Assembly (NCBI GenBank): GCA_964626665.1
Contig: CAZVGK010000010.1
Location: 1-64,000, forward strand
Origin: an uncultured Gemmatimonadota bacterium
Lineage (GTDB): Bacteria; SM23-81; DAOVCL01
Direction of reading: 5' to 3'
Length of the DNA: 64,000 nt
The notes below the pieces were generated by a model that saw nothing but the letters and a program-made list of their open reading frames with translations, searched no databases and was not told the origin of the DNA. Below, in pieces: positions 10,089 to 27,621 of the stretch (position 1 is the first letter of the stretch; each line of letters opens with the position of its first letter). A program made the position numbers and the translations under genes.

Positions 10089-10287
10089 GGGCCTCTGGCC
10101 GATCCCTCCCGAAAAAACTTGACATTTTTAGCCAATTCGGTTAATTAAATAACAGAGGTGTTACCATTTTTGGACAGGATTGACCCAATGATCAGGATAA
10201 ATAAAACTCGTCCACCAATGCTTTCTTGTGTGGGTTACATTTAAGCGGGTTATTGGGTGTAGGGCAACGTACTACGAATTGTTGTGA

Positions 10288-10351
10288 ACCCCGTTAGAAG
10301 TAAGTCGTCAGAGACGACTGCCGCACCTTTGGTGCGGATTTCTAACGGGGT
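10288..10351. repeat. Branched palindromic (REP/MITE-like) element
   Basis: Outer IR accccgttagaa/ttctaacggggt encloses two perfect 7-bp hairpins (agtcgtc/gacgact and ccgcacc/ggtgcgg). Confidence 0.75.
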
Positions 10352-10577
10352 GAATCGTCAACTTTGTGTCAACTTTGCGTCAACCAACTTTTTACAGTGC
10401 AATTATAACTTTTGAGTTGTAACATATTGCCGAGAAATTGCCGAGAAATTGCCGAGAGAATTTATCTGTAGTGGTCGGATTTATCCGACCAGAAAGAAGC
10501 AATTTATAACTAAATGCTTGAAAGTCTGATAAATACAGGTATATTATCCCTTCTGAGATAAAGGATAAATTTAGGCT

Positions 10578-11561
10578 ATGAAAATTGATCCCTCCAAGAT
10601 AAGAGATGTGGAGAGACTACAGAGATACGAAAAGATCTTCAGGCTAATGCTTAAGTTTGATAGATTCTCAAGAGAGGACATCTGGCGGTGTAAAGAAAGT
10701 AAGCAACTTATAGGCAGAGCTATAAATCTCCTTGTAAAAGAGGGGTCACTTTGCAAAGAGCCTGGCAAAAATTTTAAATGGGAGCCTTCAAGAAAGCTAT
10801 TATACAAAAATGCTTGGGTAGATAGAGTCGTATCAACTCATCAATTAAAGAGATTAGATAAGTTAAGTAGGCCAAGGGAGAAACTTTTGACATTTGGGCC
10901 CGCGAAGCTTATGACCTCGGAACTTCTGGCTATTTTTCTAAGGGCGGGGATAAAGGGTAAAAGTGTTGTGAGTTTGGCCAGTGAGCTACTAAATAAATTT
11001 GGTGGAGTGCGGGGAATCTTTGAGGCATCCAATAAGGAGTTATTACAAGTTGAGGGGTTGGGAGTGGCAAAAGTTGCCCAGATTAAGGCTGTTCATGCCT
11101 TAGCTGAAGAATACTTAAAGGAAAAGACAAAAGCAAGGAGGGTTGTGAGAAACTCGAAGGAAATTTTTGACTATCTCTATCACACAATGCGTGATCTTAA
11201 AAGGGAAGTCTTTAAAGTTATTTTCTTAGATGGAGGAAATCAGATTATAGATATTAAAGATCTCTTTGAAGGCACACTGAATTCATCATCGATTTATCCG
11301 CGTGAAGTTATAAAAAATGCCATTGAGAATGACGCAGTTAATCTTGTTTTTGTCCATAACCATCCCTCAGGAAATCCAGAGCCCTCTCAGAGCGATAAGG
11401 ATATAACGGAGGAACTGGTCTTTGCTGGAAACCTTATGCAGATTAAGGTCTTGGATCATATCATCATAGGTGACAATAAATATTTTAGTTTTGCAGATGA
11501 GGGACTGATTGAAGAATATCATCTTAATTTTTTGAGTATGAAAAGAGGCAAGAATGTTTAA
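10578..11561 (+). CDS. radC: RadC/JAB-domain protein with N-terminal extension
   Basis: RPREKL, HhH motif GLGVAK, YPREV, HNHPSG..PS..D and LDHIIIG. Confidence 0.9.
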   Translation: MKIDPSKIRDVERLQRYEKIFRLMLKFDRFSREDIWRCKESKQLIGRAINLLVKEGSLCKEPGKNFKWEPSRKLLYKNAWVDRVVSTHQLKRLDKLSRPREKLLTFGPAKLMTSELLAIFLRAGIKGKSVVSLASELLNKFGGVRGIFEASNKELLQVEGLGVAKVAQIKAVHALAEEYLKEKTKARRVVRNSKEIFDYLYHTMRDLKREVFKVIFLDGGNQIIDIKDLFEGTLNSSSIYPREVIKNAIENDAVNLVFVHNHPSGNPEPSQSDKDITEELVFAGNLMQIKVLDHIIIGDNKYFSFADEGLIEEYHLNFLSMKRGKNV

Positions 11562-12383
11562 GCCAATATTTAGATATACAAATAGAATAGTACGGTTACT
11601 TACCAGGATTTCTGCAGCAAGAGAGGTAATCCTAAATTCACCTTTAATTCCCAGATGGGAAGTCGCTTTAAGGCGTGAAGCAATAATTCACAGTGCCCAT
11701 TCATCCACCAGCATTGAGGGAAACAGGTTATCTTTGGAACAGGTAAGCGACTTAGCCCAGGGAAGAGAGGTGATGGCTACCCGGAAGGATAAATTGGAGG
11801 TTTTGAACTATTTAAGGGTATTAGGGAATCTCGGTAAATTAACTAAGGGAGAGAAAATCACCGACCCATTTTTGAAGCAGGAATAGTCCATTATGAATTT
11901 GTCAGAATTCATCCCTTTGTTGACGGGAACGGCAGAACTGCAAGAGTCCTGGCAACTTTGATTCTGTATCTACGGGGCTTTGACACCAAACAGTTCTTTT
12001 GCCTTGACGATTATTATGACTCAGATAGGCCGGCTTATTACAGAGCATTACAAAGCGTTGACCAAGAAACTCTGGATCTGACCAACTGGTTGGAATATTT
12101 TGTCGAAGGGGTAAATATAAGCATTGAGGCAGTTAAAGAAAGAGTAATTAGACTCAGTAGTGAAAGGTTGAGGAAGGCGAAAAGAGGACAGATTGCTTTA
12201 ACTGAAAGACAGATGCAGATAGTAGAATTTATAAACCAGAACGGTAGAATAGCAATTGGTGATATCTCAAAGATGTTTAAAATCACCAGACAGGCTGCGC
12301 TAAAAGAAGTTTCCAAATTAGTGGATCTGGAAGTAGTTAAATTGAGTGGGAAAGGGAGAGGCGCCCACTACATATTGGCATGA
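11554..12383 (+). pseudogene. Fic-family protein (Fic + C-terminal HTH) broken by an internal deletion/frameshift near 11865
   Basis: The N-terminal part has STSIEGN. The Fic motif HPFVDGNGRTAR (~11910-11945) is in the frame of the 11958..12383 ORF. The central Fic region appears to be missing. Confidence 0.85.
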
Positions 12384-12425
12384 AATCGGTTGTCGTTTTG
12401 GTTGTCGTTTTTTGAGGGAGTAAGT

Positions 12426-14375
12426 ATGAATAAACTCAGCAATGAAGAAATTGCGCTTATAACCAAATGTCTGAAAGAAGGTAAGCCCCTTCCTGATAGT
12501 TACAGATATATTATCCCTTTCGAAACAAAGAAGGAGTATGAGCTTACTTATGACGGCAAAGAGCGAGAGGAGGACATCCTTGCAGACACAATGGCGGTTC
12601 CTCTGCAACCGGTAAAGACATTCGGCAATGGTAATAATGCTTGGACTAACAAACTGATATTTGGGGATAATCTTCAAGTTCTCAAAGCCCTAATGGATGA
12701 TCCTGAGGTTTATGATAAAAACACAGGTAGGGGAAAAGTAAGGCTAATTTATATTGATCCTCCTTTTGCTACAAAACAGGAATTCAGAGGAAGTCAGGAT
12801 CAGAAGGCTTATCAAGACAAGATCGTAGGTGCACAGTTCTTAGAATTTCTGAGAAAAAGGCTTGTCTTCTTAAGAGAGCTCTTGGCTGATGATGGAAGCA
12901 TTTATGTGCATTTGGATTGGAAGAAAGGACATTATGTAAAAACACTAATGGATGAGATGTTTGGAGAACACAAATTTTTGAACGAAGTTATTTGGTGTTA
13001 TCGGGAAAGAGAAACCTCTACACGCTTTTATAACCGCAAGCATGAAGTAATCTTTTTCTATTGTAAATCAGATAGTTATCCATTTAATTTTAATGAAATA
13101 AGAGACGAATATAGTCAAGTAACTAAAGCTAAGTTTAAATATAAAGATGAAGAGGGATACTATAGGATTCGAGCTAAAGATGGGAGAAGCGATGTAGAAG
13201 AAGGAGTCGATACATATAGGCAATATATAGGGAAAGGAGTACTACCTCGTGATTGGACAATTATTCCATTCATTAATCAAGCTTCGACTGAGCGCGTGGG
13301 TTTCCCTACTCAGAAACCAGAAAGACTCTTAGAACGTATCATCAAAGCTTCCTCCAATCCAGGTGACATTGTCCTCGATGCCTTTGCTGGTTCCGGCACA
13401 ACAGGAGCAGTAGCAGAAAAACTTGGTAGAAGATGGATAATGATTGATTGCGGTAAATTAGCCATTTATACTATGCAAAAGAGATTGCTCAATTTAAGAG
13501 AAGAAATTGGAAACCGTGGAAAACCCCTAAAGCCAAAGCCTTTCACCCTCTATAATGCTGGGCTTTATGATTACAAGATGGTCAAAGACCTGCCCTGGGA
13601 TAAATACAGGGAATTTGTGCTTAAACTTTTCCAATGCCGGGATGAACCACATAGGATTGCTGGAATAGAATTAGACGGCTATCTTGGAGCAGATTCTGTG
13701 ATGGTTTTCAACTATAAAAAGTATGAGGATGTTATTTTGGATCGGGGATTTATTGATGACCTTCATAACATCCTTGGTGACAAAGTAGGCTATAAGTTCT
13801 TTATTATTGCTCCAGCAGCAAGCGTTACATTCTTTGAGGATTATATTGAAAAGCCCCGACAAAGTCGGGGTAAAGTCCAGACAAAATATTTTGCCCTGAG
13901 GATTCCGTATTCTATAATTGATGAACTCCACCGGAAGGGATTTAGCCACATCAAACAACCTATAAGAGAAGCAGATGTCAACGATACGATTGATGCGGTG
14001 GGATTCGATTTTATCCAAATTCCCGATGTGGAATGCGACTACTTTGTTGAATCCAAAAAGGGACAACTTAAAATAGACAAAAGCAATAAGGAAGCAGTGA
14101 TCAAGATCAAGAAGTTTAAAAGCAACATCTTATCAAAGAAACCTCTTAAATTCGAGAACAGAGAAACTCTTTCAATGGTAATGGTGGATTATGATTATAA
14201 TGGCCGTGTATTTGATTTTGATGATGTCTTTTATGCTGAAGATTTAAAGAAACAAGACTGGGAAGTCCGTTTTGATGCTAATAAAATAAACGGCCAGATG
14301 ATGACTATCTATATCGATATTTTTGGGAACGAGAAAAGGGAAGTAAAAAAGCTAAAGGATTTTAGGAAAAAGTGA
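12426..14375 (+). CDS. mod: Type III restriction-modification methyltransferase (Mod)
   Basis: IFGDNL, YIDPPF (motif IV), [16 protein letters not shown] (beta-class order) and a long C-terminal extension. ATG 12426 follows RBS GAGGGAG. Confidence 0.88.
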
Positions 14376-14540
14376 TAAATGTCTAAATTTTGTGTGAAAC
14401 AATAAGTTCACAAATAACCGAGTTAATTTTGTCACGAAACAAAATGGTTCGTTGTTTAGATAACTATGTTGCTGGGCACATGGAATATTTAGATTTAAAG
14501 ACAAGCCATCTAAAAATTTAGGGTTAAGGAGGAATCTGCA

Positions 14541-16214
14541 ATGAAAAAGGATCTCCAAATACCAAGAGAAGGGACCTTACCTATAAAAGTTAGTAAAGAT
14601 GTAGTTAAGCACTTAAGTATTGGGTTATACAGAAATTTTGCTTTGGCTGTCAAGGAGCTTATTTCGAACTCATATGATGCAGGCGCTACAGAAGTCAAGA
14701 TAAAATTAGATTTGGAGAATAGAAGAATCATAATCAGGGATAATGGCAGGGGGATGGACTATAACGAATTTAAAGAGGAATATCTCCGAATTGGTTTTTA
14801 CAAAGAGCCAGCAAAATCTGCAGATGAATTGGGACGTATGCGAATAGGCACATTTGGGATAGGGTTTCTAGCTCCATTACCCTACTGCAAAATAATGCGG
14901 GTAATCACTAAGAAAAGAGGCAGTAATACAACCATTGAAGCTACTGTAAATGCTGAAAATTTCTTTAGAAAGGGGACTTGGGATATTAAAAAAGAGAAGG
15001 TTCCTTTTAAAACTTATGATAGTGATTTACCCAAAAAAGAGGGAGAGACTATAATAGTTCTTGAGGATATTGAACCTCAGGTTGCTGAAGAGTTAAAAAG
15101 AGACGTTAGGGGAAAAAGATCTATCGAGCACAGTGGATTTGGGAAATTTAGATGGACACTATGTCAATATGCGCCTATTCAATTTTCTTCTGATAGAAAG
15201 AATTTGAGAGATTTCTTTGATGTACCAAACAGAGTTCCGATGAGATTATGGCTTGATGGTGAAGAACTTTTTAGAAATGTACCGGAAGGAGTTAAAATTT
15301 TGGAAAGGGGTGAAGAAAAATTTGGTGACATCTTCCTGAGATATGTCATAATGAGCCCTTATGACCCAATTAAACCAGAAGAGGCTCGAGGTCTTCAAGT
15401 TAGATTAAGAGATGTGGCAATAGGTTTCCCAAGAGACTTTGATGTTACGAAATTAGGTAGAGTCCTTGGAAAGTTGAATATGATTTGTGGTGAAGTTCAT
15501 ATAGTGAAGGGATTGGATAGTGCTTTGATGGTGAATAGAGACCAGTTTAACTATACCCAAGAAGTTGCTAATATGTATAAATTTTTCCAAGGCAAACTGA
15601 CAAAATGGAATGATAGACTCTATAATCAAATAGAAGAAGATAGAAAGGTTTATGATGCCTTAGGGGATCTAAAAAATGATGATGAAATTGTAGAGGGGTT
15701 AAAAAAGGTAGAGATTATTCATTTCTCCAAAGAAAGATTAAGATTCCAAGAAAAACCTATCACTAAAACAAGAAAAACTAAAGCTGAGATACCGTCAAAA
15801 AAGATAGTTAAGGTCTTATCAGAAACTAAGAAAAAGGATTATAAGATAATTCCCAAAAAAGGCGAGATATCCTCTGAAGAATCACCTATAAGGATATTAC
15901 CCGAAAAGAAGTCGATAGAAGTATACGAAGACCACCCTGCTTTTGTTGAAACTATAAAGATAGGAGAAAGAGAATTTAGAGTTGAATATGATGAATGGGA
16001 CCATAGTAAAACACCATATTCAATTTGTAGATTGCATGATGGGGAAAATAAGGTAGTATTCAATACATCACATCCGCTATTTAAAAGCAAATTAAGTGAT
16101 GAGATCATAAAACAATTGTCGTTGGGTATAGTCCTTATCCTAAAAGATAAAGAAGATGGGGAAGAGCTAATAGAGAAACTTAACCACCTGCTTGAAGATA
16201 CATTTAAGGGATAG
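14541..16214 (+). CDS. GHKL (MORC/HSP90-like) ATPase
   Basis: Bergerat-fold motifs ELISNSYDA, DNGRGM and GTFGIGF; C-terminal N.SHPLF; RBS AAGGAGG. Confidence 0.8.
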   Translation: MKKDLQIPREGTLPIKVSKDVVKHLSIGLYRNFALAVKELISNSYDAGATEVKIKLDLENRRIIIRDNGRGMDYNEFKEEYLRIGFYKEPAKSADELGRMRIGTFGIGFLAPLPYCKIMRVITKKRGSNTTIEATVNAENFFRKGTWDIKKEKVPFKTYDSDLPKKEGETIIVLEDIEPQVAEELKRDVRGKRSIEHSGFGKFRWTLCQYAPIQFSSDRKNLRDFFDVPNRVPMRLWLDGEELFRNVPEGVKILERGEEKFGDIFLRYVIMSPYDPIKPEEARGLQVRLRDVAIGFPRDFDVTKLGRVLGKLNMICGEVHIVKGLDSALMVNRDQFNYTQEVANMYKFFQGKLTKWNDRLYNQIEEDRKVYDALGDLKNDDEIVEGLKKVEIIHFSKERLRFQEKPITKTRKTKAEIPSKKIVKVLSETKKKDYKIIPKKGEISSEESPIRILPEKKSIEVYEDHPAFVETIKIGEREFRVEYDEWDHSKTPYSICRLHDGENKVVFNTSHPLFKSKLSDEIIKQLSLGIVLILKDKEDGEELIEKLNHLLEDTFKG

Positions 16215-16220
16215 AGGATA

Positions 16221-16958
16221 ATGACCGAGATTGTTTTAATAAAAGACAGACTGATAGATAAGCTATGGATTCCAATTGCTATTGCTGGTGGTAAAATCTT
16301 ATACTCCCGCCGAAAGAAAAATAAAAGAATGAAAGTGCTGACACTTACACACCATAGTAATTGTCGAGAAACAGACGAATTTATAAAAAATAAACTAACA
16401 AATAAGGAATTAATAGTTGGGTGGAATAAAGGAACTACTGAAGCTATACGATTAGAGGGTGAAAGATTAGGATCAGTTGTTGGACCCTATGTTTATGAAG
16501 ATTCTATAATCGGGGGGATGCCCGATGTTCAGAATAAATTTCCTTTTGATATACTCAACTTAGATTTTTCTTCTCAAAATCCTGAATCAGAAGGTGAAAG
16601 AGGAGAAAGAGAAATCCTTAGTATAGAACATACAATTAATCTGCAAGCAGATAAGAGAAATGATGGAATGGTTTTGATATATACAACACTTTTGGATTCT
16701 AATCCATTGAATCTAAATGAGATAAAACAGAGTTCTGATAATATCGGAATTCAAGGATGGGGTGGATTATCTATTGATAGACTACCTTACAATACAACAG
16801 ATTATCGTGAGAAAATCAGATGCTTGAAAGAGATACTCCAGCAGATATTCTCCAAATATCAGTATGAAAACATTGAAGATTTTGATCCATTATGTATAGG
16901 ACTATCTAATGGTTCTGGATACGTTTTATCGATTGGGGTATTATTAATAAGGAGTTGA
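16221..16958 (+). CDS. Hypothetical protein, possibly a degenerate Rossmann/SAM-MTase-like fold
   Basis: 245-aa ORF with an RBS, in an operon. FPFDILNLDF resembles strand 4 of class I MTases (weak). Confidence 0.55.
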   Translation: MTEIVLIKDRLIDKLWIPIAIAGGKILYSRRKKNKRMKVLTLTHHSNCRETDEFIKNKLTNKELIVGWNKGTTEAIRLEGERLGSVVGPYVYEDSIIGGMPDVQNKFPFDILNLDFSSQNPESEGERGEREILSIEHTINLQADKRNDGMVLIYTTLLDSNPLNLNEIKQSSDNIGIQGWGGLSIDRLPYNTTDYREKIRCLKEILQQIFSKYQYENIEDFDPLCIGLSNGSGYVLSIGVLLIRS

Positions 16959-17734
16959 GTGATATGACAATCTTTAAGGTAAGTGATCTCCCAACTGAAA
17001 CAAGAACTACTCACGAAAGTCAGAACAAATGGCGCAGAGAAAATTGGCAAAAAACATTAAAAGAACATAAACAAGATATTGAAGGACTTTTAAAGAAAAT
17101 TAGCTTATTTGACATCTGGTCTAACAAGTTGCAACACAATGATGTTGCTGTAAAATTAATTCCAGAAATTTTTATGGATGCTTATATTTCGATTCATTTT
17201 GCTGGTTATGGTCTTTATAAATATGCTCACATGTGTTTACGTTCTGAAATGGAAACAGCACTACGCTTGGTATTTTTCTCAACCCATAAAATTGAGTTTG
17301 AATGGTGGTCTGAAGGGAATGAATGGTACCGAGAAGAACTAAATTGGCCAGATGTTTGGGGCAAAGGATACAACTATTTTAGACAATTGGATGAAATAAA
17401 GGAATTTGAAAAACTGTGTGAAGATAATAAGAAATTATTTGGTGGGAGTAAAGTAGGTGTAAGTCGAGTCCACAAAGAACTATCAAAATTTATACATAGT
17501 GGTGCTGGTCATTTCCAAACAAGGGCAGATAGAGTTTCACCAAAACACGATCCAGGTGAATTCAGGAGATGGTATAAAACTTATGAAAAAGTACAAGCTT
17601 ATATCCATACAATATTTGCATTAGGATTTGCAGATAAATTTAAAAATATGCCTACCACTCGAAAAAATAAGATTTTAGATACTGGCATGGACGAATATTA
17701 TAAAGAAAAAGTGAAACAAATCTTGGGGTTATAG
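16955..17734 (+). CDS. Hypothetical alpha-helical protein, possibly a divergent HEPN-like domain
   Basis: Translationally coupled to the upstream gene. LRSEMETAL and KELSKFIHS patterns (weak). Confidence 0.55.
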   Translation: MSDMTIFKVSDLPTETRTTHESQNKWRRENWQKTLKEHKQDIEGLLKKISLFDIWSNKLQHNDVAVKLIPEIFMDAYISIHFAGYGLYKYAHMCLRSEMETALRLVFFSTHKIEFEWWSEGNEWYREELNWPDVWGKGYNYFRQLDEIKEFEKLCEDNKKLFGGSKVGVSRVHKELSKFIHSGAGHFQTRADRVSPKHDPGEFRRWYKTYEKVQAYIHTIFALGFADKFKNMPTTRKNKILDTGMDEYYKEKVKQILGL

Positions 17735-17737
17735 ATT

Positions 17738-18856
17738 ATGAAAAACAATATTATCAAGAGTGTAGAACATGGTTCAAATTATAAAATAACAATGGATAAT
17801 CACATTAAAACAGCGCCTTCAACGAGATATCAGGGAAGTAAACGACGCATTCTACCTTGGTTATATGAAAATTTAAGAGATTTAAAATTTAAGGCTGTCT
17901 TGGATGGATTTGGCGGGACTGCAAGCGTCAGTTATTTATTTAAATTAATGGGTAAAAAAGTAACTTTTAATGATATACTTTTATCAAATTACCAAACGGG
18001 GATTGCGCTTGTCGAAAATGATTCAGTAAAATTAGATCAAAGCGATATAGAGTTTCTACTTCACGAAAGTGGATTTGAGTATCCGACATTCATACAGGAT
18101 ACATTTAAAGGAATTTATTATTTAGATATAGAGAATAGATGGCTCGATATGGTTTCATTAAATATAGAAAAGTTATCTGAAAAATATAAGGGAGAAATAT
18201 TAAGAAAGAAAAAGGCTTTAGCATATCACATTTTATTTCAAGCTTGTTTGTGTAAACGGCCTTTTAACCTATTTCACAGAAAAAATCTTTATTTAAGAAC
18301 AGCGAATATCAAAAGAAGTTTTGGAAATAAGAAGACGTGGGATACAAATTTTAAAATTTTGTTTCTTCGGGTTCACAATGAAATTTCACAAAAAATTTTT
18401 TCTAATGGTCTAAACAATAAAGCAGTATGCAAAGACATAATGAAGATAAAGAATCGAAACTTTGATCTTGTTTATTTAGATCCTCCATATACAAGACCTA
18501 ATGAAAAATTTCCAAAGGACTACCATTCTCTGTATCATTTTCTTGAGGGATTAGTTGTTTATCATAATTGGCCTAAAAAAATAGATTGGAATACCAAGAA
18601 TAGACGACTAATTAATGGGAAAAATGATTGGAACAAGGGTTCCTTAGAAAAAAACTTTAATCAGCTTTTTAAGAAATTTCAAGATTCTATAATCGTTCTC
18701 TCATATGGGGATCCTGGAACTCCATCTATACAAAAAATTAAAGAACTCCTACGACAGTACAAATCTAAAATAAATATCGTGAGAAGAGAATACAAATACA
18801 AACTAAATCATAATAATGGGGATGGAATGCACGAAGTCTTGATAATTGGAAGGTAA
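17738..18856 (+). CDS. DNA adenine methyltransferase (D12/Dam-FokI-like, alpha class)
   Basis: RYQGSK, then DGFGGTASVS (motif I) before YLDPPY (motif IV). Confidence 0.85.
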   Translation: MKNNIIKSVEHGSNYKITMDNHIKTAPSTRYQGSKRRILPWLYENLRDLKFKAVLDGFGGTASVSYLFKLMGKKVTFNDILLSNYQTGIALVENDSVKLDQSDIEFLLHESGFEYPTFIQDTFKGIYYLDIENRWLDMVSLNIEKLSEKYKGEILRKKKALAYHILFQACLCKRPFNLFHRKNLYLRTANIKRSFGNKKTWDTNFKILFLRVHNEISQKIFSNGLNNKAVCKDIMKIKNRNFDLVYLDPPYTRPNEKFPKDYHSLYHFLEGLVVYHNWPKKIDWNTKNRRLINGKNDWNKGSLEKNFNQLFKKFQDSIIVLSYGDPGTPSIQKIKELLRQYKSKINIVRREYKYKLNHNNGDGMHEVLIIGR

Positions 18857-19016
18857 AGATTAAGAGAAGAATTGATTTAGAACTAATTGAATCATATAAA
18901 TTTAAGTCTGAGTCCGAATTTAGCAAAGATTATATAATCTGTTTTAAATGGGTGATAAAACGCTAAAGAATTTAGGAATAGAGAGTAATAATCTTATTGT
19001 TTCACACAAAATTTAG

Positions 19017-19133
19017 GATCTCGTTTTGAAGGTTTCTCCAAAGATTGACCCTGAAAAATTTGATGTAAATAAGTATGAGCCTTTCTGGATGCCCTTTGTG
19101 GAGAGAAGGGGGGGCAGAAAATGGCTATAAGGG
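19017..19133 (+). pseudogene. Relic of a res gene 5' end
   Basis: Translates to DLVLKVSPKIDPEKFDVNKYEPF; the intact Res has DLVLRVSPNIDPEKFDINKYEPF. Then frameshifted and truncated. Confidence 0.85.
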
Positions 19134-19159
19134 AGTTGAGTCTTTATTAGGAGGTTGAA

Positions 19160-20320
19160 ATGGATAAAGAGGAATTAACAGAGATAATAGAAAAAGGGGA
19201 AGATTCGTTTACCGAATTCAAGGAGGAAAAGGTTCATCCTGATGATTTGGCTGCTGAGATGGTTGCTTTTGCCAATACTGAAGGCGGAAAAATACTATTG
19301 GGAGTTTCTGATAAAAAAGAGATTAAAGGTCTATCAATACCCGATAAAGAAATGCAGAGGGCTGAGAATATCTCTCATAATAATTGTGAACCGTCACTTG
19401 CTGTAAGTATAGAAAAAGTTAAGGTCAATAAAAAAATGATCTTATGTATTTACATATCCAAAGGGCCAGAAAGACCTTATAGGACAAATAGAGGCGTATA
19501 TTATATCAGGACAAGTTCTGGTAGAAGGCAAGCCACAAGAGAAGAACTTCTGAGGCTCTATCAGGCAACTCGTTCCATTTATTATGATGAACTGCCCGTG
19601 CCTGCAACTTCTGTTGATGAATTGGACATACTTTATTTCAGAAGATTTTTTGAAAGTTTTTACCAGACAAAGATTGAAGATATGAACGCTGACTTGAATA
19701 AGCTATTAGAGAACATGAAGGTTTTAACATGGATGGATGAGAAGTTAGTCTTTACTGTCGGGGGTTATCTTTTATTTGGATTAAATCCGCAGAAAGAGTT
19801 TCCGTTTGGCAAAATTACAATTGCGAAATTTGATGGTAATGAGATAGGAGAGGAATTTGAGAAAAAGGACTTGGAAGGAAAACTTGTTGAACAGATTGAT
19901 GGTGCAGACAGAGTCTTAAATCAATATCTTAAAACAAAGGTTAAGATTGAAGGATTTGGAAATGAATTAAAATTTGAAATTCCAAAGGGAGTATTGAGAG
20001 AAGCTGTAGTCAATGCCATTGCCCATCGTGATTATCATATCCCTTCTCAAATTCGCATCTTCATATTTGATAACAGATTGGAGATTATGAGCCCCGGAAA
20101 ATTACCCAACACAGTTACCCTGGAAAACATAAAGTTAGGTGTGCATTCAGAACGGAATCAACTCATTGTTTCCTATCTTGCAAAGATGGGCTATATGACC
20201 CAGATTGGAACTGGTGTTCCCAGAATGATCAGGCTTCTAAAAGAGCATACTGGCAAAGAACCTGAATTTGAAGAGCGAGACCATCAATTCACAGTGAGAA
20301 TCTGGAGACCGGATTTATGA
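19160..20320 (+). CDS. Schlafen/AlbA_2 domain protein with C-terminal HATPase_c_4-like domain
   Basis: GEDSFTEFKE, AFANTEGG.I.LGV, REAVVNAIAHRDY, SPGKLP and GTGVPR. Confidence 0.85.
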   Translation: MDKEELTEIIEKGEDSFTEFKEEKVHPDDLAAEMVAFANTEGGKILLGVSDKKEIKGLSIPDKEMQRAENISHNNCEPSLAVSIEKVKVNKKMILCIYISKGPERPYRTNRGVYYIRTSSGRRQATREELLRLYQATRSIYYDELPVPATSVDELDILYFRRFFESFYQTKIEDMNADLNKLLENMKVLTWMDEKLVFTVGGYLLFGLNPQKEFPFGKITIAKFDGNEIGEEFEKKDLEGKLVEQIDGADRVLNQYLKTKVKIEGFGNELKFEIPKGVLREAVVNAIAHRDYHIPSQIRIFIFDNRLEIMSPGKLPNTVTLENIKLGVHSERNQLIVSYLAKMGYMTQIGTGVPRMIRLLKEHTGKEPEFEERDHQFTVRIWRPDL

Positions 20321-22815
20321 TAGTAGATAAAAAGGTATTCAAAAATCAGGACCTTGTTCTTAGGGTTTCTCCAAATATTGATCCTGAGAAGTTTGATATA
20401 AATAAGTATGAGCCATTTATGGATGCTACTTGTAGGGAGAGGGAGTATCAGAAAGAGGCTATAAGGGTTACTTTGCGATACCTTTTGGGAGGTCAATATA
20501 ATGACCTTAAGGAATTGGCAGAAGAGAATTACCGCCAGAATCCAGTTCTGCAGGAAAGATACGGGTCATTAGAAGATTTTTATCAGCATTTACAGCTACC
20601 TGACAAGCTTTCCTGCACCATAGATTTAGCCACTGCCACTGGTAAGAGCTATGTTCTTTATGGGATTGCTCGAATTATGCTCGCCAAGGGAACCGTAGAT
20701 CAAGTATTGGTGCTTTGCCCTTCCAACACAATAGAAACAGGTTTAACCGAAAAATTCCGCTCATTATCAGCCGATGGGACTTTGAAGGATTTGCTATCAG
20801 ATTCTGCGGAGATTCTAAACCCCAGGATCATTAATGCCACTCAGACAATCCAGAAAGGCGATATTTGCATAGAAAATATCCATGCCACTTATCAACGGAC
20901 CAAATCTGCCATAGAAGATAGTCTTATAGGCAAAGGCGAAAGAACACTTGTGTTAAATGACGAAGTTCATCACATGGCCAATCCTCCCGCTCGTGATATG
21001 GCTATAAAGAAATGGAAAGAATTTTTGCTTAATCCTAAATACGATTTCAGATACATAGTCGGTGATTCAGGTACCTGTTATGTTGACAATGATTATTTTG
21101 CAGATGTGATTTATCGGTTTTCCTTGAGGGATTCGATTGAGAAAAAGTTTGTAAAAACGATTGACTATGTGGCTGAGGATGTTTCTCATTCAAAACCCGA
21201 AAAATTCCAAAAGATTTACGATAATCACATCCAGAATAAAATGGTGAAATATCGATTGATCAAACCCCTCACGATCTTAGTTACTAAAAATATCAGTGCT
21301 TGTAAAAAGCTAACAGAAGAGTTAATTGGATTCATAGCAGAGAAAGAGAGAATAAGCAAAGAGGTCGCCTCAAATAAGGTTTTGATTGTGACCTCAGCTC
21401 GTGAGCACAAAGATAATATAGCAAAGCTTAAGAACGTTGATGATAAGGACAATCCCATTGAATGGATTACATCAGTCAGCATGCTTTCCGAAGGATGGGA
21501 TGTGCAAAATGTGTGTCAGATTGTTCCCCACGAGGAAAGAGCTTTTAATTCCAAATTGCTCATTGCGCAAGTGCTGGGGAGAGGGTTGAGAATACCACCG
21601 AAATATAAAGGAGAACAACCTGTTGTTACTGTATTCAACCATGATAAGTGGTCAAGTAGCATCAAGCACTTGGTCAACGAAGTTCTTGAAATAGAGAAAA
21701 GGATTCATAGCCGCGTTATTGCTAAGGATGAGAATTACAATTTTAAGCTCCACAACATAAGGTATGACAAGACACCAGAAGTTTTAGAAACTCCAAAAGT
21801 TGCCGAGTATAAGTTTAGCAAGGGGTTTTCTCTAAGTAGCGAAGACCAAGTGAAAATAATAGAGGAGGAGACCATTTACGAAAGGGCAGTCGTAGAAAAA
21901 CAGCGTGAAAAGAAAACCCTCATTGAATTTAAAGTGTATTCAGCGGAGGAAATTGCTCAGGTTGTCCATAGCAGATATAGAAGTTGGGATATGGATGAAG
22001 GCACTGATTATGCGCGGAAGTATCCCTATGACAAAATCCTATCGATCATAAAAAACTCTCTGAGAGATAAGGGAAATTTGATTAACGATAAAGGCAGACA
22101 GAAGCTACTACAAGGGTTCGGAGTAACAAGAAGAAAAAAGAGTAAAAGGCTGAGATATAAAATTGAGGCCGAGGATCTCTCTTCGATTGATACTGCAGAT
22201 GTCAAGAAAAGTAGTTTGGGAATTGGGGCTTTAAGAAGAGATGGCAGTATTTTTTATGATGATTACTCTCTAAAAACTGGAGAAGATGAGGACAAAAAGT
22301 TATTAAAAAAGGTTATTGAAATGTTTGATGACGGACAACTGCACAGCGCTTCTTTAATTAAGGTTGAAAACTCATATAATTTTAAAACACCACTAAATAT
22401 TATTTTTGCCTCATATAAACCAGAGAGGGATTTCATTAAGAGGCTGGTTAAGGAAGAAAATGCCAGGGGAATTGATTCATGGATAAAATCTCCTGATGTT
22501 GGTTTCTATAGTGTGGAATATTCCTGGAGAAAAGGGGAACATCCCAAACAGGGGAGTTTTAATCCTGACTTTTTCATAAAGATTGGAGGAGACACATTGG
22601 TAGTTGAAATTAAGGCTGATTTAGATGTCTCTGATGAGAATAGGGCCAAATTAAGATATGCAGAAGAGCACTTCAATCGTCTAAATGCTTTACAGTCAAA
22701 ATGCAGATATTATTTCAAGTTCCTATCTCCGCGAAGTTTTGACCTCTTTTTTCAATGTTTAAGAGAGAGACAATATCAGAATTTCAAGTCTGAAATAGAG
22801 GCTTCTTTAGAATGA
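20317..22815 (+). CDS. res: Type III restriction enzyme Res subunit (SF2 helicase + PD-(D/E)xK nuclease)
   Basis: Walker A ATATGKS, DEVHH, LSEGWD, QVLGRGLR, and C-terminal PDF...VEIK. Confidence 0.88.
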   Translation: MIVDKKVFKNQDLVLRVSPNIDPEKFDINKYEPFMDATCREREYQKEAIRVTLRYLLGGQYNDLKELAEENYRQNPVLQERYGSLEDFYQHLQLPDKLSCTIDLATATGKSYVLYGIARIMLAKGTVDQVLVLCPSNTIETGLTEKFRSLSADGTLKDLLSDSAEILNPRIINATQTIQKGDICIENIHATYQRTKSAIEDSLIGKGERTLVLNDEVHHMANPPARDMAIKKWKEFLLNPKYDFRYIVGDSGTCYVDNDYFADVIYRFSLRDSIEKKFVKTIDYVAEDVSHSKPEKFQKIYDNHIQNKMVKYRLIKPLTILVTKNISACKKLTEELIGFIAEKERISKEVASNKVLIVTSAREHKDNIAKLKNVDDKDNPIEWITSVSMLSEGWDVQNVCQIVPHEERAFNSKLLIAQVLGRGLRIPPKYKGEQPVVTVFNHDKWSSSIKHLVNEVLEIEKRIHSRVIAKDENYNFKLHNIRYDKTPEVLETPKVAEYKFSKGFSLSSEDQVKIIEEETIYERAVVEKQREKKTLIEFKVYSAEEIAQVVHSRYRSWDMDEGTDYARKYPYDKILSIIKNSLRDKGNLINDKGRQKLLQGFGVTRRKKSKRLRYKIEAEDLSSIDTADVKKSSLGIGALRRDGSIFYDDYSLKTGEDEDKKLLKKVIEMFDDGQLHSASLIKVENSYNFKTPLNIIFASYKPERDFIKRLVKEENARGIDSWIKSPDVGFYSVEYSWRKGEHPKQGSFNPDFFIKIGGDTLVVEIKADLDVSDENRAKLRYAEEHFNRLNALQSKCRYYFKFLSPRSFDLFFQCLRERQYQNFKSEIEASLE

Positions 22816-23018
22816 TTAACTTTGCCGGGTAGTGGAAACCTGGATCCAGATACTGGGTTAGGGAGCTTAGATAAGCTCTATAATGCCGTAACCGTTTTTA
22901 CTTGCTGCCGATCCCAGAAGGCAAAGACGGTTATGGGGAGGGGAATGAGCACTGAAGATACATCCTTATTAAAAAAGCAAAGGCGTAGATGATTGCACTG
23001 CAAAAAGGCTGAAGGTTG

Positions 23019-23094
23019 GGTAGCCGCAACCTTCAGGTTGCGTAAGTAGTTGGTTTATCGAGCTCCTTTTCGCAGGCTAAAGCCTGCGGCTACC
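23019..23094. repeat. Inverted pair of GTAG-type REP palindromes
   Basis: ggtagccgcaaccttcaggttgcg ... cgcaggctaaagcctgcggctacc. The second unit recurs at ~44177-44198, and a shortened form occurs at ~42815-42850. Confidence 0.7.
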
Positions 23095-23119
23095 GATTTT
23101 AGTTTTTGTAGTAGAATAG

Positions 23120-23989
23120 ATGGCATTGAAAATTGAAAAGGGAATAACCTTAAAGATTATGGAATATAAGGTAATAACTCCGAATGATTCTGAATATCCG
23201 AAAAGGCTCGTTGAAAGGTTAGGAGACAAATCTCCTGAGAAGATATATTATAGCGGCCCATTAGAATTCCTTGACCGTTTCACTATGGCAGTGATTTCTG
23301 CTGATTCGATAACTGGGCAGGCACTGAATGAGACAAATCAGGTTCTGTTCACTGTAAGGGAATATGAGATGAATTATATTGGTGGTTGGCATTCGGTAAT
23401 GGAAACCGAGATTTTCCGGTTGGGGCTATTCAGAAGAAATACTACGGTAACTCTCTTTACTGCAAAAGGGTTGCAGGTTGAGACATTTGAATTTTTTCTG
23501 AAGGATAGGTTTTATCCCCCCTTGCACGAATTTCCGGAAAGGGATGAGTATTTCAGACGGGTCAAAACTGGTGAATTATTGATACTTTCTCTTAGTGACC
23601 CGGATGAGACGAGGCAGTTGCGAAAGAATATAATGGAGAGAAACTGGATATCTTGTGCTCTTGCCGATATTGTTTTTATCCCCTATGGTCCCAAAGGCTC
23701 AAAGACTTACACAATGGCGAAGAGAATTTCTTCCACGAATATACCGGCCTTTACACTTGATAGTGGCGAATGCAAGGACCTTCTTCAACTTGGCATTCCT
23801 GGATTTAAGCGAAAAACAGTGAAAGCCTTCCTTGAGGGCAACGGGGCAAAATTAGCAGTTCCACCGGATGAGATAAGGAAGTCTGTTGAAGCATATAAAA
23901 ATCCAACGAGTCAGCAACTATCATTTATAAAGGAGCCCACCCAGACGGAACTAGAGTTTAAGAAAAACAGCAAGGATAGTGAGCCATAA
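23120..23989 (+). CDS. DprA/Smf-like (SLOG Rossmann-fold) protein
   Basis: ITPNDSEYPKRL...P.KIYYSG at the N-terminus and RN..S.ALAD.VFI...GSKT. Alternative start at ATG 23159. Confidence 0.6.
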   Translation: MALKIEKGITLKIMEYKVITPNDSEYPKRLVERLGDKSPEKIYYSGPLEFLDRFTMAVISADSITGQALNETNQVLFTVREYEMNYIGGWHSVMETEIFRLGLFRRNTTVTLFTAKGLQVETFEFFLKDRFYPPLHEFPERDEYFRRVKTGELLILSLSDPDETRQLRKNIMERNWISCALADIVFIPYGPKGSKTYTMAKRISSTNIPAFTLDSGECKDLLQLGIPGFKRKTVKAFLEGNGAKLAVPPDEIRKSVEAYKNPTSQQLSFIKEPTQTELEFKKNSKDSEP

Positions 23990-24070
23990 GTATTGTTAGG
24001 GCTTATTGCTCTATAACCATCCTTGCCTGCCATCGACTTCAGAAAGTAAGGACAATTAGGGGGAAGGAGA

Positions 24071-26092
24071 ATGGAAAAAGACCTCTTTGAGAAAAAAGAA
24101 GCGCAGATGGTTAGCAAACACAACATTCTCGAAAACTATCTTGAGCCGTGGATAATAATCTTTTCCTCTGCGGGACAAAAATGGGCAAAGAAACTATATT
24201 ATGTGGATGCCTTTGCTGGAACGGGAAGATTTGCTACCGGAGAAGAGGGTTCTCCAGTAATTGGAGCAAGACTTTTGAGGCATTACTGGAAACCGCAAAT
24301 ATACTACTGTTGTATATGCATAGAAAAGGAAAGCAAACGAGTAAAGGAACTTGAAAGTGAATTAAATCAATTTCGAGATAAAGTGGATATAAAAATTTAC
24401 CCCGGTGAATTTGATGATAAAACGGATGAAGTGATTAACGAAATTGGTAATCATCCTGCCTTTTTCTTGATTGATCCTGAAGGGTTTTCAGGGATGAGCT
24501 TTTTGTCTATTGAAAAAATTCTTGAGTTACCGCATAAAGAAGTTCTAATTAACTTTCAATATAATGCAGTACAACGCTGGTTGAAAGCAAAAAAGGTGGG
24601 AAAAACAATTACTGATTTATTTGGAACTGACAAGTGGATAGAGATTCCCCGAAAGGGACTCCAGAAAAGCGAAAAGGAAAGAGCATTAGTCGAACTTTAT
24701 AAATCCCAGTTGAGAGCAAAGGGATATTATGTCTGGTACTTCAGGAATAAAATCCCAGCAAAGAATAGAACATTCTACTATCTTGTTTACGCTACCAGGA
24801 ACCTCACAGGTTTTAAGATAATGAAGGGAGTGATTTTTAAGGAAGAAAGTAGAAGATATTTTGAGCCAAATTTATTTGAGGAAGTAGATTTTACGGAGTT
24901 TCAAAACGAATTGTTAAGAAAGTATAAAGGAACTAAGGTTTTGTATAAAGAAGTTTTGGTGTATGTTTTACAGGAAACGAACTATCTGGCAGGGGACCTG
25001 GATTTAGTTATAAAAAATGTGAGAATTAAAAAGGAATATAACCCAAAAGAAAGGAATAACTTCTGGCTTGTTTTCCCTATGTCTTACGGAGCATTGAATA
25101 CTCGTAAATTCCATATTCGGGAGAGTGATATTTCTTTTGTATCTCCTAAAACTATTACAAGAGGGCCAAGAATCTTATACAATGAGGAAGATTTAGTAAG
25201 GCAGGTTGCTGATGGCTCCATCATTAAACGATTTGATAAAACTCCTTATCCAGTTAAGCCCACGGATGTTGTTTGTCCTCATTTCCTTGAGTTGAAATGG
25301 GCTTATGGGTGTCCGTTTAATTGTAGCTGGTGTTACTTGAAGGGCACTTTTCGTTTTAGGCCGGAGGGGATAAAACCTGCTTATAAACCTATGGAAAAGG
25401 TAAAATTGCATACGGAGACATTTCTTCAGAAAGTGAAGATTCCAGAGATTCTTAATACTGGTGAGATAGCCGATTCCTTAATGAAAGAGAATGGTGATAG
25501 TCCATTCTCTAAATTCATCATCCCCATCTTTGAAACTCAGAACATGCACAAGGTTTTGTTTGTTACCAAATCATCGAATATAAAGAACTTTTTAGAGATG
25601 CCCTCTCATAGGCAGGTTATAGTGAGTTTCAGTCTTAATGCTTTCCCGGTAGCAGAGAGGTGGGAGAAAGGGGCTCCCCCTGTTCCAAAACGAATCGAGG
25701 CGGCGAAGAAAGTCGCCGACGCAGGCTATGAAGTCAGGATAAGAATTGACCCAATGATACCAGTGGAAAACTGGAAGGAATATTATATCCAACTGATAGA
25801 CGAGATATTCACGAGATTTGTTCCTGAAAGAATTACCTTGGGTTCTTTAAGAGGGCTTCAGAGCACAATCAACGGCACTAATGACACCAGTTGGGTTAAA
25901 TATCTAAAAGAAAGCTCAAACTGGGGGAGAAAAATAGATTTTACCACAAGATGTAGAATCTACAAAACCATTATTGGGTATCTGAGTGACAAATACAATT
26001 ATTCCCATATAGCCTTGTGCAAGGAAACAAAGGCGATGTGGGAGAAATTAGGGATGGATTGGACCCAGATTAGATGTAATTGCGTATGGTAG
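24071..26092 (+). CDS. Fusion of a three-Cys-motif partner (TcmP-like, MTase fold) and a spore-photoproduct-lyase-like radical SAM domain
   Basis: N-half: KH.IL.NYL, YVDAFAGTG, GSP, FLIDP.G, EVLINF and YYLVYATRN..G..IMK. C-half: CPFNCSWC (CxxxCxxC), TGEIADS, FVTKS and IRIDPMIP. Confidence 0.75.
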   Translation: MEKDLFEKKEAQMVSKHNILENYLEPWIIIFSSAGQKWAKKLYYVDAFAGTGRFATGEEGSPVIGARLLRHYWKPQIYYCCICIEKESKRVKELESELNQFRDKVDIKIYPGEFDDKTDEVINEIGNHPAFFLIDPEGFSGMSFLSIEKILELPHKEVLINFQYNAVQRWLKAKKVGKTITDLFGTDKWIEIPRKGLQKSEKERALVELYKSQLRAKGYYVWYFRNKIPAKNRTFYYLVYATRNLTGFKIMKGVIFKEESRRYFEPNLFEEVDFTEFQNELLRKYKGTKVLYKEVLVYVLQETNYLAGDLDLVIKNVRIKKEYNPKERNNFWLVFPMSYGALNTRKFHIRESDISFVSPKTITRGPRILYNEEDLVRQVADGSIIKRFDKTPYPVKPTDVVCPHFLELKWAYGCPFNCSWCYLKGTFRFRPEGIKPAYKPMEKVKLHTETFLQKVKIPEILNTGEIADSLMKENGDSPFSKFIIPIFETQNMHKVLFVTKSSNIKNFLEMPSHRQVIVSFSLNAFPVAERWEKGAPPVPKRIEAAKKVADAGYEVRIRIDPMIPVENWKEYYIQLIDEIFTRFVPERITLGSLRGLQSTINGTNDTSWVKYLKESSNWGRKIDFTTRCRIYKTIIGYLSDKYNYSHIALCKETKAMWEKLGMDWTQIRCNCVW

Positions 26093-26257
26093 AATAATGG
26101 AGTTTCTGAATTAAAGGATTCGTCTTATGCTAAAAAACACCGAATGACACCGAAAAAAATAGCACTTCATTCTTGAGTGAAACTTTTGTTTTGGATTTGT
26201 TCAGTGATTTTCGGTGTTTAATGTCCAACCCGGGATTATTAGAGATGGTAAAAGCTG

Positions 26258-26596
26258 ATGGGTAAAAATACGAAAAATATACCGGATTTGGAGAGGCTGA
26301 TCAATTTTATATCCTCGAAATATCTTCCAGAGAAGATCATTCTCTTTGGCTCTTACGGAACCCCATCAAGACGAGATAATTCCGATATAGACCTGCTGAT
26401 CATAAAAAAGACAGATAAGAAGTTTGTAGATAGAGTAGTAGAACTGATGCAGCTCATCAGGAGTCAATTTGGGGTTGAATATCCTGTTGAGCCTCTTGTT
26501 TATACTCCAGCCGAATTTAGAGGAGCCGAAATGACAAGCAGTCTATTTATTCGGACAGTTTTGTCGAAAGGGGTTATTTTGTATGAAAAAAAATAA
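26258..26596 (+). CDS. Minimal nucleotidyltransferase (MNT antitoxin)
   Basis: ILFGSYG...SDIDLLII motif. Confidence 0.85.
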   Translation: MGKNTKNIPDLERLINFISSKYLPEKIILFGSYGTPSRRDNSDIDLLIIKKTDKKFVDRVVELMQLIRSQFGVEYPVEPLVYTPAEFRGAEMTSSLFIRTVLSKGVILYEKK

Positions 26597-26990
26597 ACCT
26601 GCAGCGGAGATTTGGCTGAGAAAAGCTAAGGAGGATCTTGCCTTTGCGGAGGCTGGTTGGAAGGAGAGCAAGATAGCATCAGTTACCTGCGTGCTTTGCC
26701 AGCAGGCGGTAGAGAAGGCCTTGAAATCTCTTCTGGAATTAGAAAATATCAGCATAGAAAGAACCCCGTCTCTTAAGACTCACAGATTGGTGGATATAAT
26801 TGAGGAATGTAGAGGATATTATCCTCAGGTAGAGATGTTCACCGATGATTGTGACAAATTAACGGTCTATTATTTTGATAGGTATCCAGCTGATATTCCC
26901 TTGAATTTGACCGAAGAAGATGCCGCATTTGCCCTGGAGACAGCGGAGAAGATCCTAAGTTCTGTAGAGGGGATAATATCAAAAGCCTGA
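26583..26990 (+). CDS. HEPN domain protein (partner of MNT)
   Basis: W..KA.EDL, CQQAVEKALK, KTH.L and RYP. Overlaps the MNT gene. Confidence 0.85.
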   Translation: MKKNKPAAEIWLRKAKEDLAFAEAGWKESKIASVTCVLCQQAVEKALKSLLELENISIERTPSLKTHRLVDIIEECRGYYPQVEMFTDDCDKLTVYYFDRYPADIPLNLTEEDAAFALETAEKILSSVEGIISKA

Positions 26991-27078
26991 AGGGATTGAG
27001 GAATCCTTCGCATGATGATGACATCCCCAAAGAGCGATTGGGGATATATCCAGAAGATTGTGATGTGAGGAGGTGTTT

Positions 27079-27621
27079 ATGAAAGTTGGCCTCTTAAGCG
27101 ACAGCCACGGTGAGTTGGAGAACCTGCGTCGGGCCGCCAAAGTTCTGGCCGATCAGGTGGAACTCATCGTCCACCTGGGGGACGATTGGGATGATTGCCG
27201 GGTGCTTGAGGAGATGGGTCTGAAATTCATCAGGGTGCCCGGGGTCTTCAGCAGTTACTATCAGGCCCCTCAGATCGCCAACCGCAGGATAGAGAAGTTC
27301 AACCACTGGAAGGTTCTTCTCTCCCATACCTCTACCTCCCATAAGAACGATCTTCCTCAGGATATGAAACCAGAGGTTGTTGTGGCCAGAAGGGAGGTAG
27401 ATGTTGTCCTCTATGGCCATACCCATATCCCTAAAATTGAGAAATCACAGGGGATCTTATGGGTCAACCCCGGCCATCTGAAACCGGAGGATAGGAAGGG
27501 ATACTCTCCCAGCTATGCCATCTTAGATTTTGGGCCCCAAGAGGTTTGGGTTAGAATCTTTGGCCTGGAGAAGGGGGAGATCTTGGCCGAGAGTGAAATT
27601 AGGGACACTTCCCATTTTTAA
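27079..27621 (+). CDS. Metallophosphoesterase (YfcE/MJ0936-like)
   Basis: SDSHG, HLGD, GHTH and NPG motifs; RBS GAGGAGG. Confidence 0.85.
   Translation: MKVGLLSDSHGELENLRRAAKVLADQVELIVHLGDDWDDCRVLEEMGLKFIRVPGVFSSYYQAPQIANRRIEKFNHWKVLLSHTSTSHKNDLPQDMKPEVVVARREVDVVLYGHTHIPKIEKSQGILWVNPGHLKPEDRKGYSPSYAILDFGPQEVWVRIFGLEKGEILAESEIRDTSHF

Follow-up and report, generated by a model that had tools for sequence, protein, structure and literature searches.

A linked four-gene cassette encoding a GHKL ATPase, a methyltransferase-fold protein, a HEPN-like protein and an adenine methylase as a candidate restriction-modification-like defence system

A cassette of four co-directional open reading frames (ORFs) lies at positions 14541 to 18856 of a 64,000-nucleotide (nt) stretch of DNA from an uncultured Gemmatimonadota bacterium (GenBank assembly GCA_964626665.1; contig CAZVGK010000010.1, positions 1 to 64,000), the whole of which is referred to here as the window. 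With a probability of about 0.5, this cassette is a self-contained, horizontally mobile, restriction-modification (R-M)-like defence system. The host genome is bacterial, 3.17 Mb in size and 99.65% complete, and the four genes are as follows:

Gene 1: 14541 to 16214, + strand, 557 amino acids (aa), paraMORC-type GHKL ATPase
Gene 2: 16221 to 16958, + strand, 245 aa, class I (Rossmann) methyltransferase fold in the predicted model
Gene 3: 16955 to 17734, + strand, 259 aa from a TTG start (256 aa from the ATG at 16964), predicted all-helical, HEPN-like
Gene 4: 17738 to 18856, + strand, 372 aa, alpha-class D12 N6-adenine DNA methyltransferase

An initial annotation, made from the sequence alone, had described four tightly packed genes with gaps of 6, -4 and 3 nt, and both the packing and the gap values agree with the coordinates of the ORFs as called. 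The ATG at 16964 is preceded by AAGGAG 9 nt upstream and agrees with the N-termini of gene 3 orthologs, and is more likely to be the start of gene 3 than the TTG at 16955. Use of this start would change the second gap from -4 to +5, giving spacers of 6, 5 and 3 nt, and the packing is tight either way. AAGGAGG, a strong ribosome-binding site, is found before the ATG of gene 1. In the 165-nt gap 5' of gene 1, at 14390 to 14450, inspection by eye revealed two short inverted repeats that are imperfect and resemble each other (arms of ~6 bp, spacer of 6–9 nt). These repeats could be an operator; no gene for a controller protein was found inside the cassette.

Linkage and distribution of the four genes

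The surroundings of gene 3 were examined at 55 loci carrying a close relative, 8 of which came from a pattern scan of 185,579 species genomes and 47 from a set of 69 metagenome loci. Neighbouring genes were called by tblastn using the window proteins, and a slot was judged if the flank exceeded 800 nt (gene 2) or 2500 nt (gene 1) upstream, or 1200 nt downstream (gene 4). Every judgeable slot was occupied: 43 of 43 for gene 2, 29 of 29 for gene 1 and 40 of 40 for gene 4. Conservation of the gene neighbourhood, which the initial annotation had put forward as a check, thus held at every locus where it could be judged.

The order of genes 1, 2 and 3 is constant, and gene 4 is directly next to them except in three loci (L005, L008 and L049) where it is inverted. 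Genes 1 to 3 form an intact block in L005 and L049 despite the inversion, and the L008 sequence starts inside gene 3. An inverted gene 4 beside an intact block of genes 1 to 3 suggests the split that is typical of the restriction and modification halves of an R-M system. The pairwise identities of the four proteins were also found to co-vary over 26 loci, with Mantel r values of 0.62–0.83 that were reached in 0 of 999 permutations, these tests being inflated by related copies.

Among the species genomes, the named hosts belong to the Pseudomonadota, Desulfobacteraceae, Aenigmatarchaeota, Methanophagales, Thorarchaeota, Woesearchaeota, Micrarchaeota and Methanoperedens, and gene 3 hosts span two phyla of bacteria and six lineages of archaea. 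A tree of gene 3 nests the bacterial copies with the one from Thorarchaeota (support 98/96), and the two named bacterial copies, which are from different phyla, are sisters with branches of ~0.1. A search of 40 genomes related to the host, 2 of them from its own genus, did not detect gene 3. The GC content of the cassette is 0.331, compared with 0.377 for the 17.5-kb island that contains it and 0.494 for the remaining window. The low GC content, the sporadic spread across domains and the gene 3 tree argue that the cassette is horizontally mobile.

Predicted properties of the four products

The gene 4 product matches Pfam PF02086 (MethyltransfD12) with 58.7 bits (cut-off 22) and the generic PADLOC model MTase_II at E = 1.9e-51. 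As FxGxG (F58-G59-G60) is N-terminal to DPPY (D248-Y251), the motifs are in the alpha order, which together with the PF02086 match confirms the earlier identification of an alpha-class N6-methyladenine (m6A) methylase. Both motifs are invariant or nearly so in 25–41 orthologs. Gene 4 is the most conserved of the four, with a mean column identity of 61% over 25 orthologs, and the region between the motifs shares in this conservation, which hints at a single shared specificity.

In the gene 1 product, the ATP-binding domain is N-terminal and is followed by a conserved middle region, with lower conservation in the C-terminal part. The protein matches Pfam HATPase_c_3 at E = 2.6e-22 (79.7 bits; cut-off 25), and the Bergerat motifs I–IV (E39/N43/D46; D67xGxG71; G98-R99...G103xF105-G106xG108; G168-E-T170) show conservation of 95% or more across 30 orthologs. 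A weak match to the ATP-binding model of sacsin was also found (E = 2.4e-8). The initial annotation had rightly recognised clear GHKL motifs but had gone on to name the protein a MORC ATPase, which was not borne out. The MORC S5 motif GhXhhpXXRhl (PMC2292703) was found in 0 of 30 orthologs in a regular-expression search, and Pfam Morc6_S5 gave no match to gene 1. Because the S5 motif is missing, and with a GHKL domain and a methylase neighbourhood both present, paraMORC-type GHKL ATPase appears to be the better label.

For gene 2, an AlphaFold model with a predicted local distance difference test (pLDDT) score of 81.9 predicts a class I (Rossmann) methyltransferase fold with seven strands, in line with the methyltransferase-like fold proposed in the initial annotation. 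A Foldseek comparison of this model with the PDB returned methyltransferases at E = 4e-4, with probabilities of 0.98–0.99 and template modelling (TM) scores of 0.3–0.44. The best 50 rows of a VIA-align search were all methyltransferase-fold chains, mostly RNA methyltransferases, headed by Trm1 (3axt_A; Z 12.6, root-mean-square deviation 3.6, 188 residues aligned), and a search of BFVD folds gave generic methyltransferases only. In the ESM Atlas, gene 2 is near PP_RS20740-like clusters (TM 0.72–0.77). The corresponding sequence family NF047698 (PP_RS20740; PF28273) is weakly matched by 34 of 38 gene 2 orthologs (best E = 6e-7), and the window protein scores 19.1 bits over residues 103–161. As these scores are far under the cut-off of 200, gene 2 is considered a distant relative of the PP_RS20740 family and not a member. 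The one paper to name that family describes it as a hypothetical protein.

No Pfam, PADLOC or PHROGs family matched gene 2, a profile search of its alignment against PDB sequences gave no meaningful match, and relatives were absent from plasmid sequences. Comparisons by hhalign detected no relationship to gene 4 or to the TcmP domain encoded at 24071–24940 in the window. A glycine-rich motif I was not found after strand 1 in 43 orthologs, which have LTLT and polar residues there and share no glycine, and a (D/N/S)PP(Y/F/W) motif IV was likewise not found, its place after strand 4 being occupied by NLDF(S/T)SQ. The segment FPFDILNLDF, to which the initial annotation had drawn attention, is present and conserved in 38 sequences. 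Five residues (W16, W68, D115, Q119 and S237) do not vary among these, and three more (N113, L114 and F116) reach at least 90%. Of the four genes, gene 2 evolves fastest (mean pairwise identity 0.36).

The gene 3 model (pLDDT 92.8) is all-helical, with predicted core helices at residues 63–84, 88–110, 168–180 and 200–224 and helical inserts at 112–154 between helices 2 and 3. In a wide VIA-align search, ranks 1, 2, 3, 5 and 6 were occupied by HEPN-annotated chains with 116–130 residues aligned (2hsb, Z 8.5; the sacsin HEPN domain 3o10, 7.9; 1ufb, 7.5; 1wol, 7.1; 4nqf, 6.9), and LsoA, AbiA, SO_3166 and RnlA appeared by rank 22. As Z values under ~13 may mean merely an arrangement that is common in helical bundles, this result taken alone is a lead.

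Across 40 gene 3 sequences with 16–47% identity to the window protein, R96, S177 and H181 alone are invariant, and the LRSEME...ELSKFIH segments noted in the initial annotation are thus both present and conserved. In the same distant sequences W55, E71, E100, E114 and Y173 reach 90%, and R104 is invariant among 39 closer sequences. Helix 2 (88–110) carries R96-x3-E100-x3-R104, which includes the acidic Ex3[KR] feature of HEPN proteins, and S177-x3-H181 closes helix 3. On the predicted model, this layout fits the description of HEPN proteins by Anantharaman et al. (PMC3710099).

Gene 3 itself matched no family, the PADLOC models and PHROGs included, and a profile search of its alignment against PDB sequences gave no meaningful match. 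The window protein is also unmatched by DUF5677 (PF18928; gathering score 27.1 bits), which is matched at E ≤ 1 by 17 of 39 relatives (best E = 2.2e-5) and at E ≤ 0.01 by 11 of 30 distant superfamily members, with 2 above the cut-off. A profile search of 1.84 billion representatives retrieved 717 superfamily relatives at E ≤ 1e-3, and as the best 150 of the 717 are all stand-alone proteins of 65–339 aa, no fusion to a GHKL domain was seen. Viral contigs contained no gene 3 relatives, and plasmids contained just two, 20% identical, in Clostridium butyricum and beside a recombinase. In one case (C. butyricum megaplasmid, GenBank accession number NZ_CP073278.1; coordinates 532292 to 534674; locus L080) the relative is located between an upstream recombinase family gene and a gene for a 559-aa hypothetical protein. 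A preprint reports that DUF5677 genes are enriched beside serine recombinases.

Defence-gene setting, proposed mechanism and alternatives

The cassette is located in a low-GC defence island at 10100 to 27650 of the window. The other genes of the island, and the housekeeping genes that lie 3' of it, are listed below:

10578 to 11561: RadC
11554 to 11886 and 11958 to 12383: Fic gene in two pieces, covering SoFic model positions 35–115 and 211–350 of 361
12390 to 14375: Type III-like N6_N4 mod gene
19160 to 20320: Schlafen/AlbA_2 and HATPase_c_4 protein, overlapping the ResIII helicase gene by 4 nt
20317 to 22815: ResIII helicase
23120 to 23989: DprA-like protein with weak PsyrA and ShosA matches
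24071 to 26092: fusion of TcmP and a spore-photoproduct-lyase-like radical SAM protein, matching PDC-M30A
26258 to 26990: MNT-HEPN pair
30370 to 31982: RsmA/KsgA and TatD, housekeeping, 3' of the island

The Fic core between the two ORFs at 11554 to 12383 is missing, which suggests that this gene is broken or split. The cassette lies between mod (12390) and res (20317), and its insertion inside a Type III R-M system was considered; the flanks are not conserved at other loci. The other island genes are absent from those loci save for weak matches of 26–46% identity, for example to different N6_N4 methylases in L003, L005, L006 and L053. A stand-alone Ymh (HEPN) protein of ~270 aa is encoded elsewhere on the same contig of the host, outside the window (G000:C10:83164-83535).

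Defence genes flank the cassette in other genomes too, which supports the reading as a defence module in the initial annotation. In the flanks of 18 other loci, 27 of 104 ORFs, found in 14 of the 18 loci, match PADLOC at E ≤ 1e-8, a count made without a background control. The matches vary by locus and include TmtA, NsnA, Type I, II and III R-M, PDC-M30A, PDC-S04, PDC-S19 and HEC-06/Orf5-like genes. On a 243-kb metagenome contig (L010:29-3454), genes for a methylase, a different GHKL protein of 605 aa and another REase_II were seen directly 5' of the cassette; the 605-aa protein matches PADLOC REase_II PDLC03419 over residues 1–136.

If the cassette is an R-M-like defence system, gene 4 would methylate adenines in the host DNA and thereby mark self. 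Genes 1 to 3 would be the attacking half, judging from their strict linkage, and would form one complex. In this complex the gene 1 product would clamp nucleic acid as a dimer driven by ATP. The gene 2 product, Trm1-like but with the cofactor loop lost, would serve as a nucleic-acid-binding or base-reading adaptor and not as a methylase. The gene 3 product would be the effector, with a variant catalytic set formed by R96/E100 in helix 2 and S177/H181 where helix 3 ends, and would be switched on when the complex meets DNA lacking the gene 4 mark. By analogy with HEPN proteins it would be a metal-independent RNase, causing translation arrest or abortive infection, or it may act on DNA. A more specific form of this proposal is put forward tentatively and is rather doubtful: an R-M system with a non-DNase weapon, in which the GHKL clamp and the pseudo-methyltransferase reader check for m6A, and its absence leads a non-canonical HEPN-fold nuclease to cut RNA, or that nuclease is the first DNA-cutting HEPN. 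If true, DNA methylation status would be coupled to new effector chemistry via a degenerate Trm1-like fold.

Several observations weigh against this interpretation. Of the 55 loci behind the linkage counts, L009 is the contig of the window itself and three pairs are identical (L012/13, L029/30 and L042/44), and the count of defence genes in the flanks has the limit given above. As the initial annotation had stated, no PD-(D/E)xK or HNH nuclease could be recognised, and no nuclease family was found in the four proteins in Pfam, PADLOC, NCBIfam or PHROGs. The HEPN-like assignment of gene 3 rests on a predicted model with middling scores, and a Foldseek comparison of that model with the PDB gave nothing at E ≤ 0.001. 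The arginine of the HEPN Rx4-6H motif is missing, positions -4 to -6 from H181 being S177, L176 and one that varies; PMC3710099 describes HEPN families in which the histidine is retained and the arginine is not. No Pfam HEPN family matched any of 39 gene 3 members at E ≤ 1, and hhalign gave the gene 3 superfamily probabilities of 0.2 against the PF05168 HEPN protein of the window and 0.1 against a nine-sequence Ymh alignment, both being small comparators. The HEPN-like nature of gene 3 suggested in the initial annotation is therefore supported by the predicted fold and the placement of the motifs, but not by the Rx4-6H arginine or by a profile link to Pfam HEPN families or Ymh. Because of these two gaps gene 3 is called HEPN-like here and is not filed as a proven member.

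The wider gene 3 superfamily also counts against a methylation-based role, as it is mostly without a methylase link. An operon that has no methylase and consists of a ParA/AAA_31 ATPase gene, a gene for a protein of ~160–190 aa belonging to no family and, last, a gene 3-like gene was found at no fewer than 7 loci (L062:4408-6525, L063:734-2845, L066:250-2296, L076:61-2177, L070:653-2838, L059 and L064; 25–36% identity over the core). This operon may constitute a module of its own, either toxin-antitoxin-like or for defence, and it suggests that the helical protein is a portable effector paired with different NTPases. A lone DUF5677 gene that was tested in Enterococcus faecalis did not count as an active defence in the text of PMC12632615 examined.

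The main rival explanation, itself unlikely, is that gene 1 is an ATP-dependent endonuclease of the BbrUII/HgiDII kind that would cut DNA with its unassigned C-terminal domain. Gene 4 would then be the methylase cognate to it, with accessory or back-up roles for genes 2 and 3. A nuclease may indeed be present in the C-terminal third of gene 1. The best named family for this protein is NCBIfam BbrUII/HgiDII (NF050001; E = 3e-26), two PADLOC REase_II models also match (E = 2.2e-14 and 3e-10), and R.HgiDII itself combines a GHKL N-terminus with a C-terminal domain that has no known fold (PMC2441816). In an ESM Atlas structure search, residues 191–549 resembled HATPase_c_3 proteins with TM scores of 0.40–0.56, a 660-aa cluster being at 0.56. 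However, the NF050001 match is confined to the GHKL part (model positions 3–178 of 659) with 92.2 bits against a cut-off of 550, and does not amount to full-length membership; the REase_II matches are likewise via the GHKL domain only. The last third of gene 1 is also its least conserved part over the 30 orthologs, the exceptions being a few residues including N508 and H511. A search with residues 190–557 retrieved 223 relatives at 90% clustering. Among the matches listed (120 of 223), nearly all are ~555 aa, with a few shorter and probably truncated, and they are named 'ATP-binding' or 'hypothetical', none as a named restriction enzyme. An endonuclease in gene 1 would, moreover, leave unexplained genes 2 and 3, which are present at every judgeable locus.

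The ParA-type operons can also be read in favour of a methylase-stabilised toxin module, an addiction or abortive-infection element in which the gene 3 toxin is restrained by genes 1 and 2 and released by phage proteins or stress instead of by a reading of methylation, with the methylase serving for example in regulation or in protection from neighbouring systems. HEPN-ParA pairs were predicted to be toxin-antitoxin systems by Anantharaman et al. (PMC3710099), who also likened GHKL-Ymh fusions to PrrC and RloC. This explanation is nevertheless quite improbable, as the presence of gene 4 in 40 of 40 judgeable loci and a divergence that tracks genes 1 to 3 are hard to explain unless methylation belongs to the mechanism. 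It is less likely again that gene 2 is an active RNA or DNA methyltransferase, which would give the system two modifying enzymes and possibly place the key mark on RNA such as tRNA. Its top structural matches are mostly cofactor-bound RNA methyltransferases (Trm1, RlmO, TYW2, FtsJ and RsmD-like; Z 10–12.6), position 50 is acidic (E/D) with a single exception among the 43 orthologs, as read by eye from the alignment, and strong conservation is seen in the motif after strand 4. However, that motif is NLDF and not (D/N/S)PP(Y/F/W), and the missing glycine-rich loop, the lack of a Pfam methyltransferase match and the fast evolution of gene 2 all argue against activity. A role outside immunity, in methyl-directed DNA repair or as a chromatin-type module built of a MutL-like ATPase and a Dam-like methylase, is highly improbable. 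The solved sequences closest to gene 1 come from the N-terminal domains of MutL and PMS2 (E = 7e-5 to 4e-3) and gene 4 is of the Dam (D12) class, but a sporadic cross-domain distribution, low GC content, absence from the 40 related genomes and varying defence neighbours are not what such a module would predict.

Methylase-linked GHKL ATPases have been predicted to restrict since 2008, and how such modules discriminate self from non-self, and what they target, are at issue. The cassette is a convenient model, as its parts are split into four small genes that are always together. It raises the questions of whether a HEPN-fold effector operates in a methylation-based system, what role a methyltransferase fold without the cofactor loop has, and how the ATPase couples both. 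The cassette also bears on the exchange of immune genes across domains, being found both in bacteria and in archaea that have been little studied (DPANN, Asgard and ANME-type).

Relationship to known systems

The initial annotation did not recognise the gene combination as a named system. PADLOC-DB v2.0.0 indeed gave no match for genes 2 and 3 at E ≤ 0.01, and no description of the four-gene combination was found in the literature searched, which comprised the available texts apart from supplementary tables. However, methylase-linked GHKL-HEPN fusions were predicted in 2008 and 2013, and the kind of system is not wholly without precedent. Orlowski and Bujnicki (PMC2441816) described REBASE entries with a GHKL N-terminus, including R.HgiDII and R.NmeAIP, the latter with a Ymh C-terminus. 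Anantharaman et al. (PMC3710099) classed Ymh as HEPN, reported paraMORC-Ymh fusions in R-M neighbourhoods and proposed that GHKL-Ymh fusions work like the anticodon nucleases PrrC and RloC. These methylase-linked paraMORC GHKL-Ymh HEPN fusions, themselves computational predictions, are the nearest known kind; no experiment on a methylase-linked GHKL-HEPN module was found in the available texts.

An example of such a module was found in an unrelated genome (L096:6581-12129), where a 545-aa HATPase_c_3 and Hypoth_Ymh protein is encoded 3 nt downstream of a C5 methylase gene. The GHKL domain of this fusion is 38% identical to gene 1 over residues 21–127 (E = 3e-18). An Eco29kI-type R-M pair adjoins the module. 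Like the GHKL-Ymh modules, the cassette joins a GHKL ATPase, a HEPN-type helical domain and a DNA methylase without a classical DNase. It differs in that the helical protein is encoded by a separate gene, is DUF5677-related and has Sx3H instead of Rx4-6H, in that a methyltransferase-fold subunit is always added, and in that the methylase is an m6A D12 enzyme and not a C5 methylase as in L096. By analogy, the cassette is read as a split, expanded relative of the two-gene modules of a methylase and a GHKL-Ymh fusion.

The predicted MORC and paraMORC1-5 R-M operons (Iyer et al. 2008, PMC2292703) share with the cassette intact GHKL motifs beside a DNA methylase and a sporadic, laterally mobile distribution in bacteria and archaea. 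However, they mostly use cytosine methylases whereas the cassette has an m6A enzyme, and the cassette is without the superfamily 2 (SF2) helicase, Vsr, REase-fold, HNH or TIR partners found there; the available text of that article does not mention partners corresponding to genes 2 and 3. The BbrUII/HgiDII Type II enzymes (NF050001) also have a GHKL N-terminal domain and a methylase partner, but they are single polypeptides and the gene 1 match covers 176 of 659 model positions.

PrrC and RloC, anticodon nucleases that a Type I R-M enzyme keeps latent, are functionally analogous, on the comparison drawn in PMC3710099, as they link a HEPN RNase with an NTPase and a DNA-methylation-based system. 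They differ in that their ATPase is of the ABC type and is fused to the HEPN domain, and in that a complete Type I R-M system is present. In Tiamat and the Tiamat-like GHL ATPase-nuclease proteins (10.64898/2026.09.30.754977), an Hsp90/MutL-like ATPase is coupled to an effector and adenine methylases are frequent neighbours, as in the cassette. However, the Tiamat effector is a fused PD-(D/E)xK nuclease and its methylases co-occur only with a helicase, whereas the cassette has neither nuclease nor helicase, the lack of a helicase setting it apart from its known relatives. Sacsin likewise joins Hsp90/MutL-like ATPase domains to a HEPN domain (10.64898/2026.09.30.754977), and the pairing of GHKL and HEPN-like proteins in the cassette thus echoes that of the human protein.

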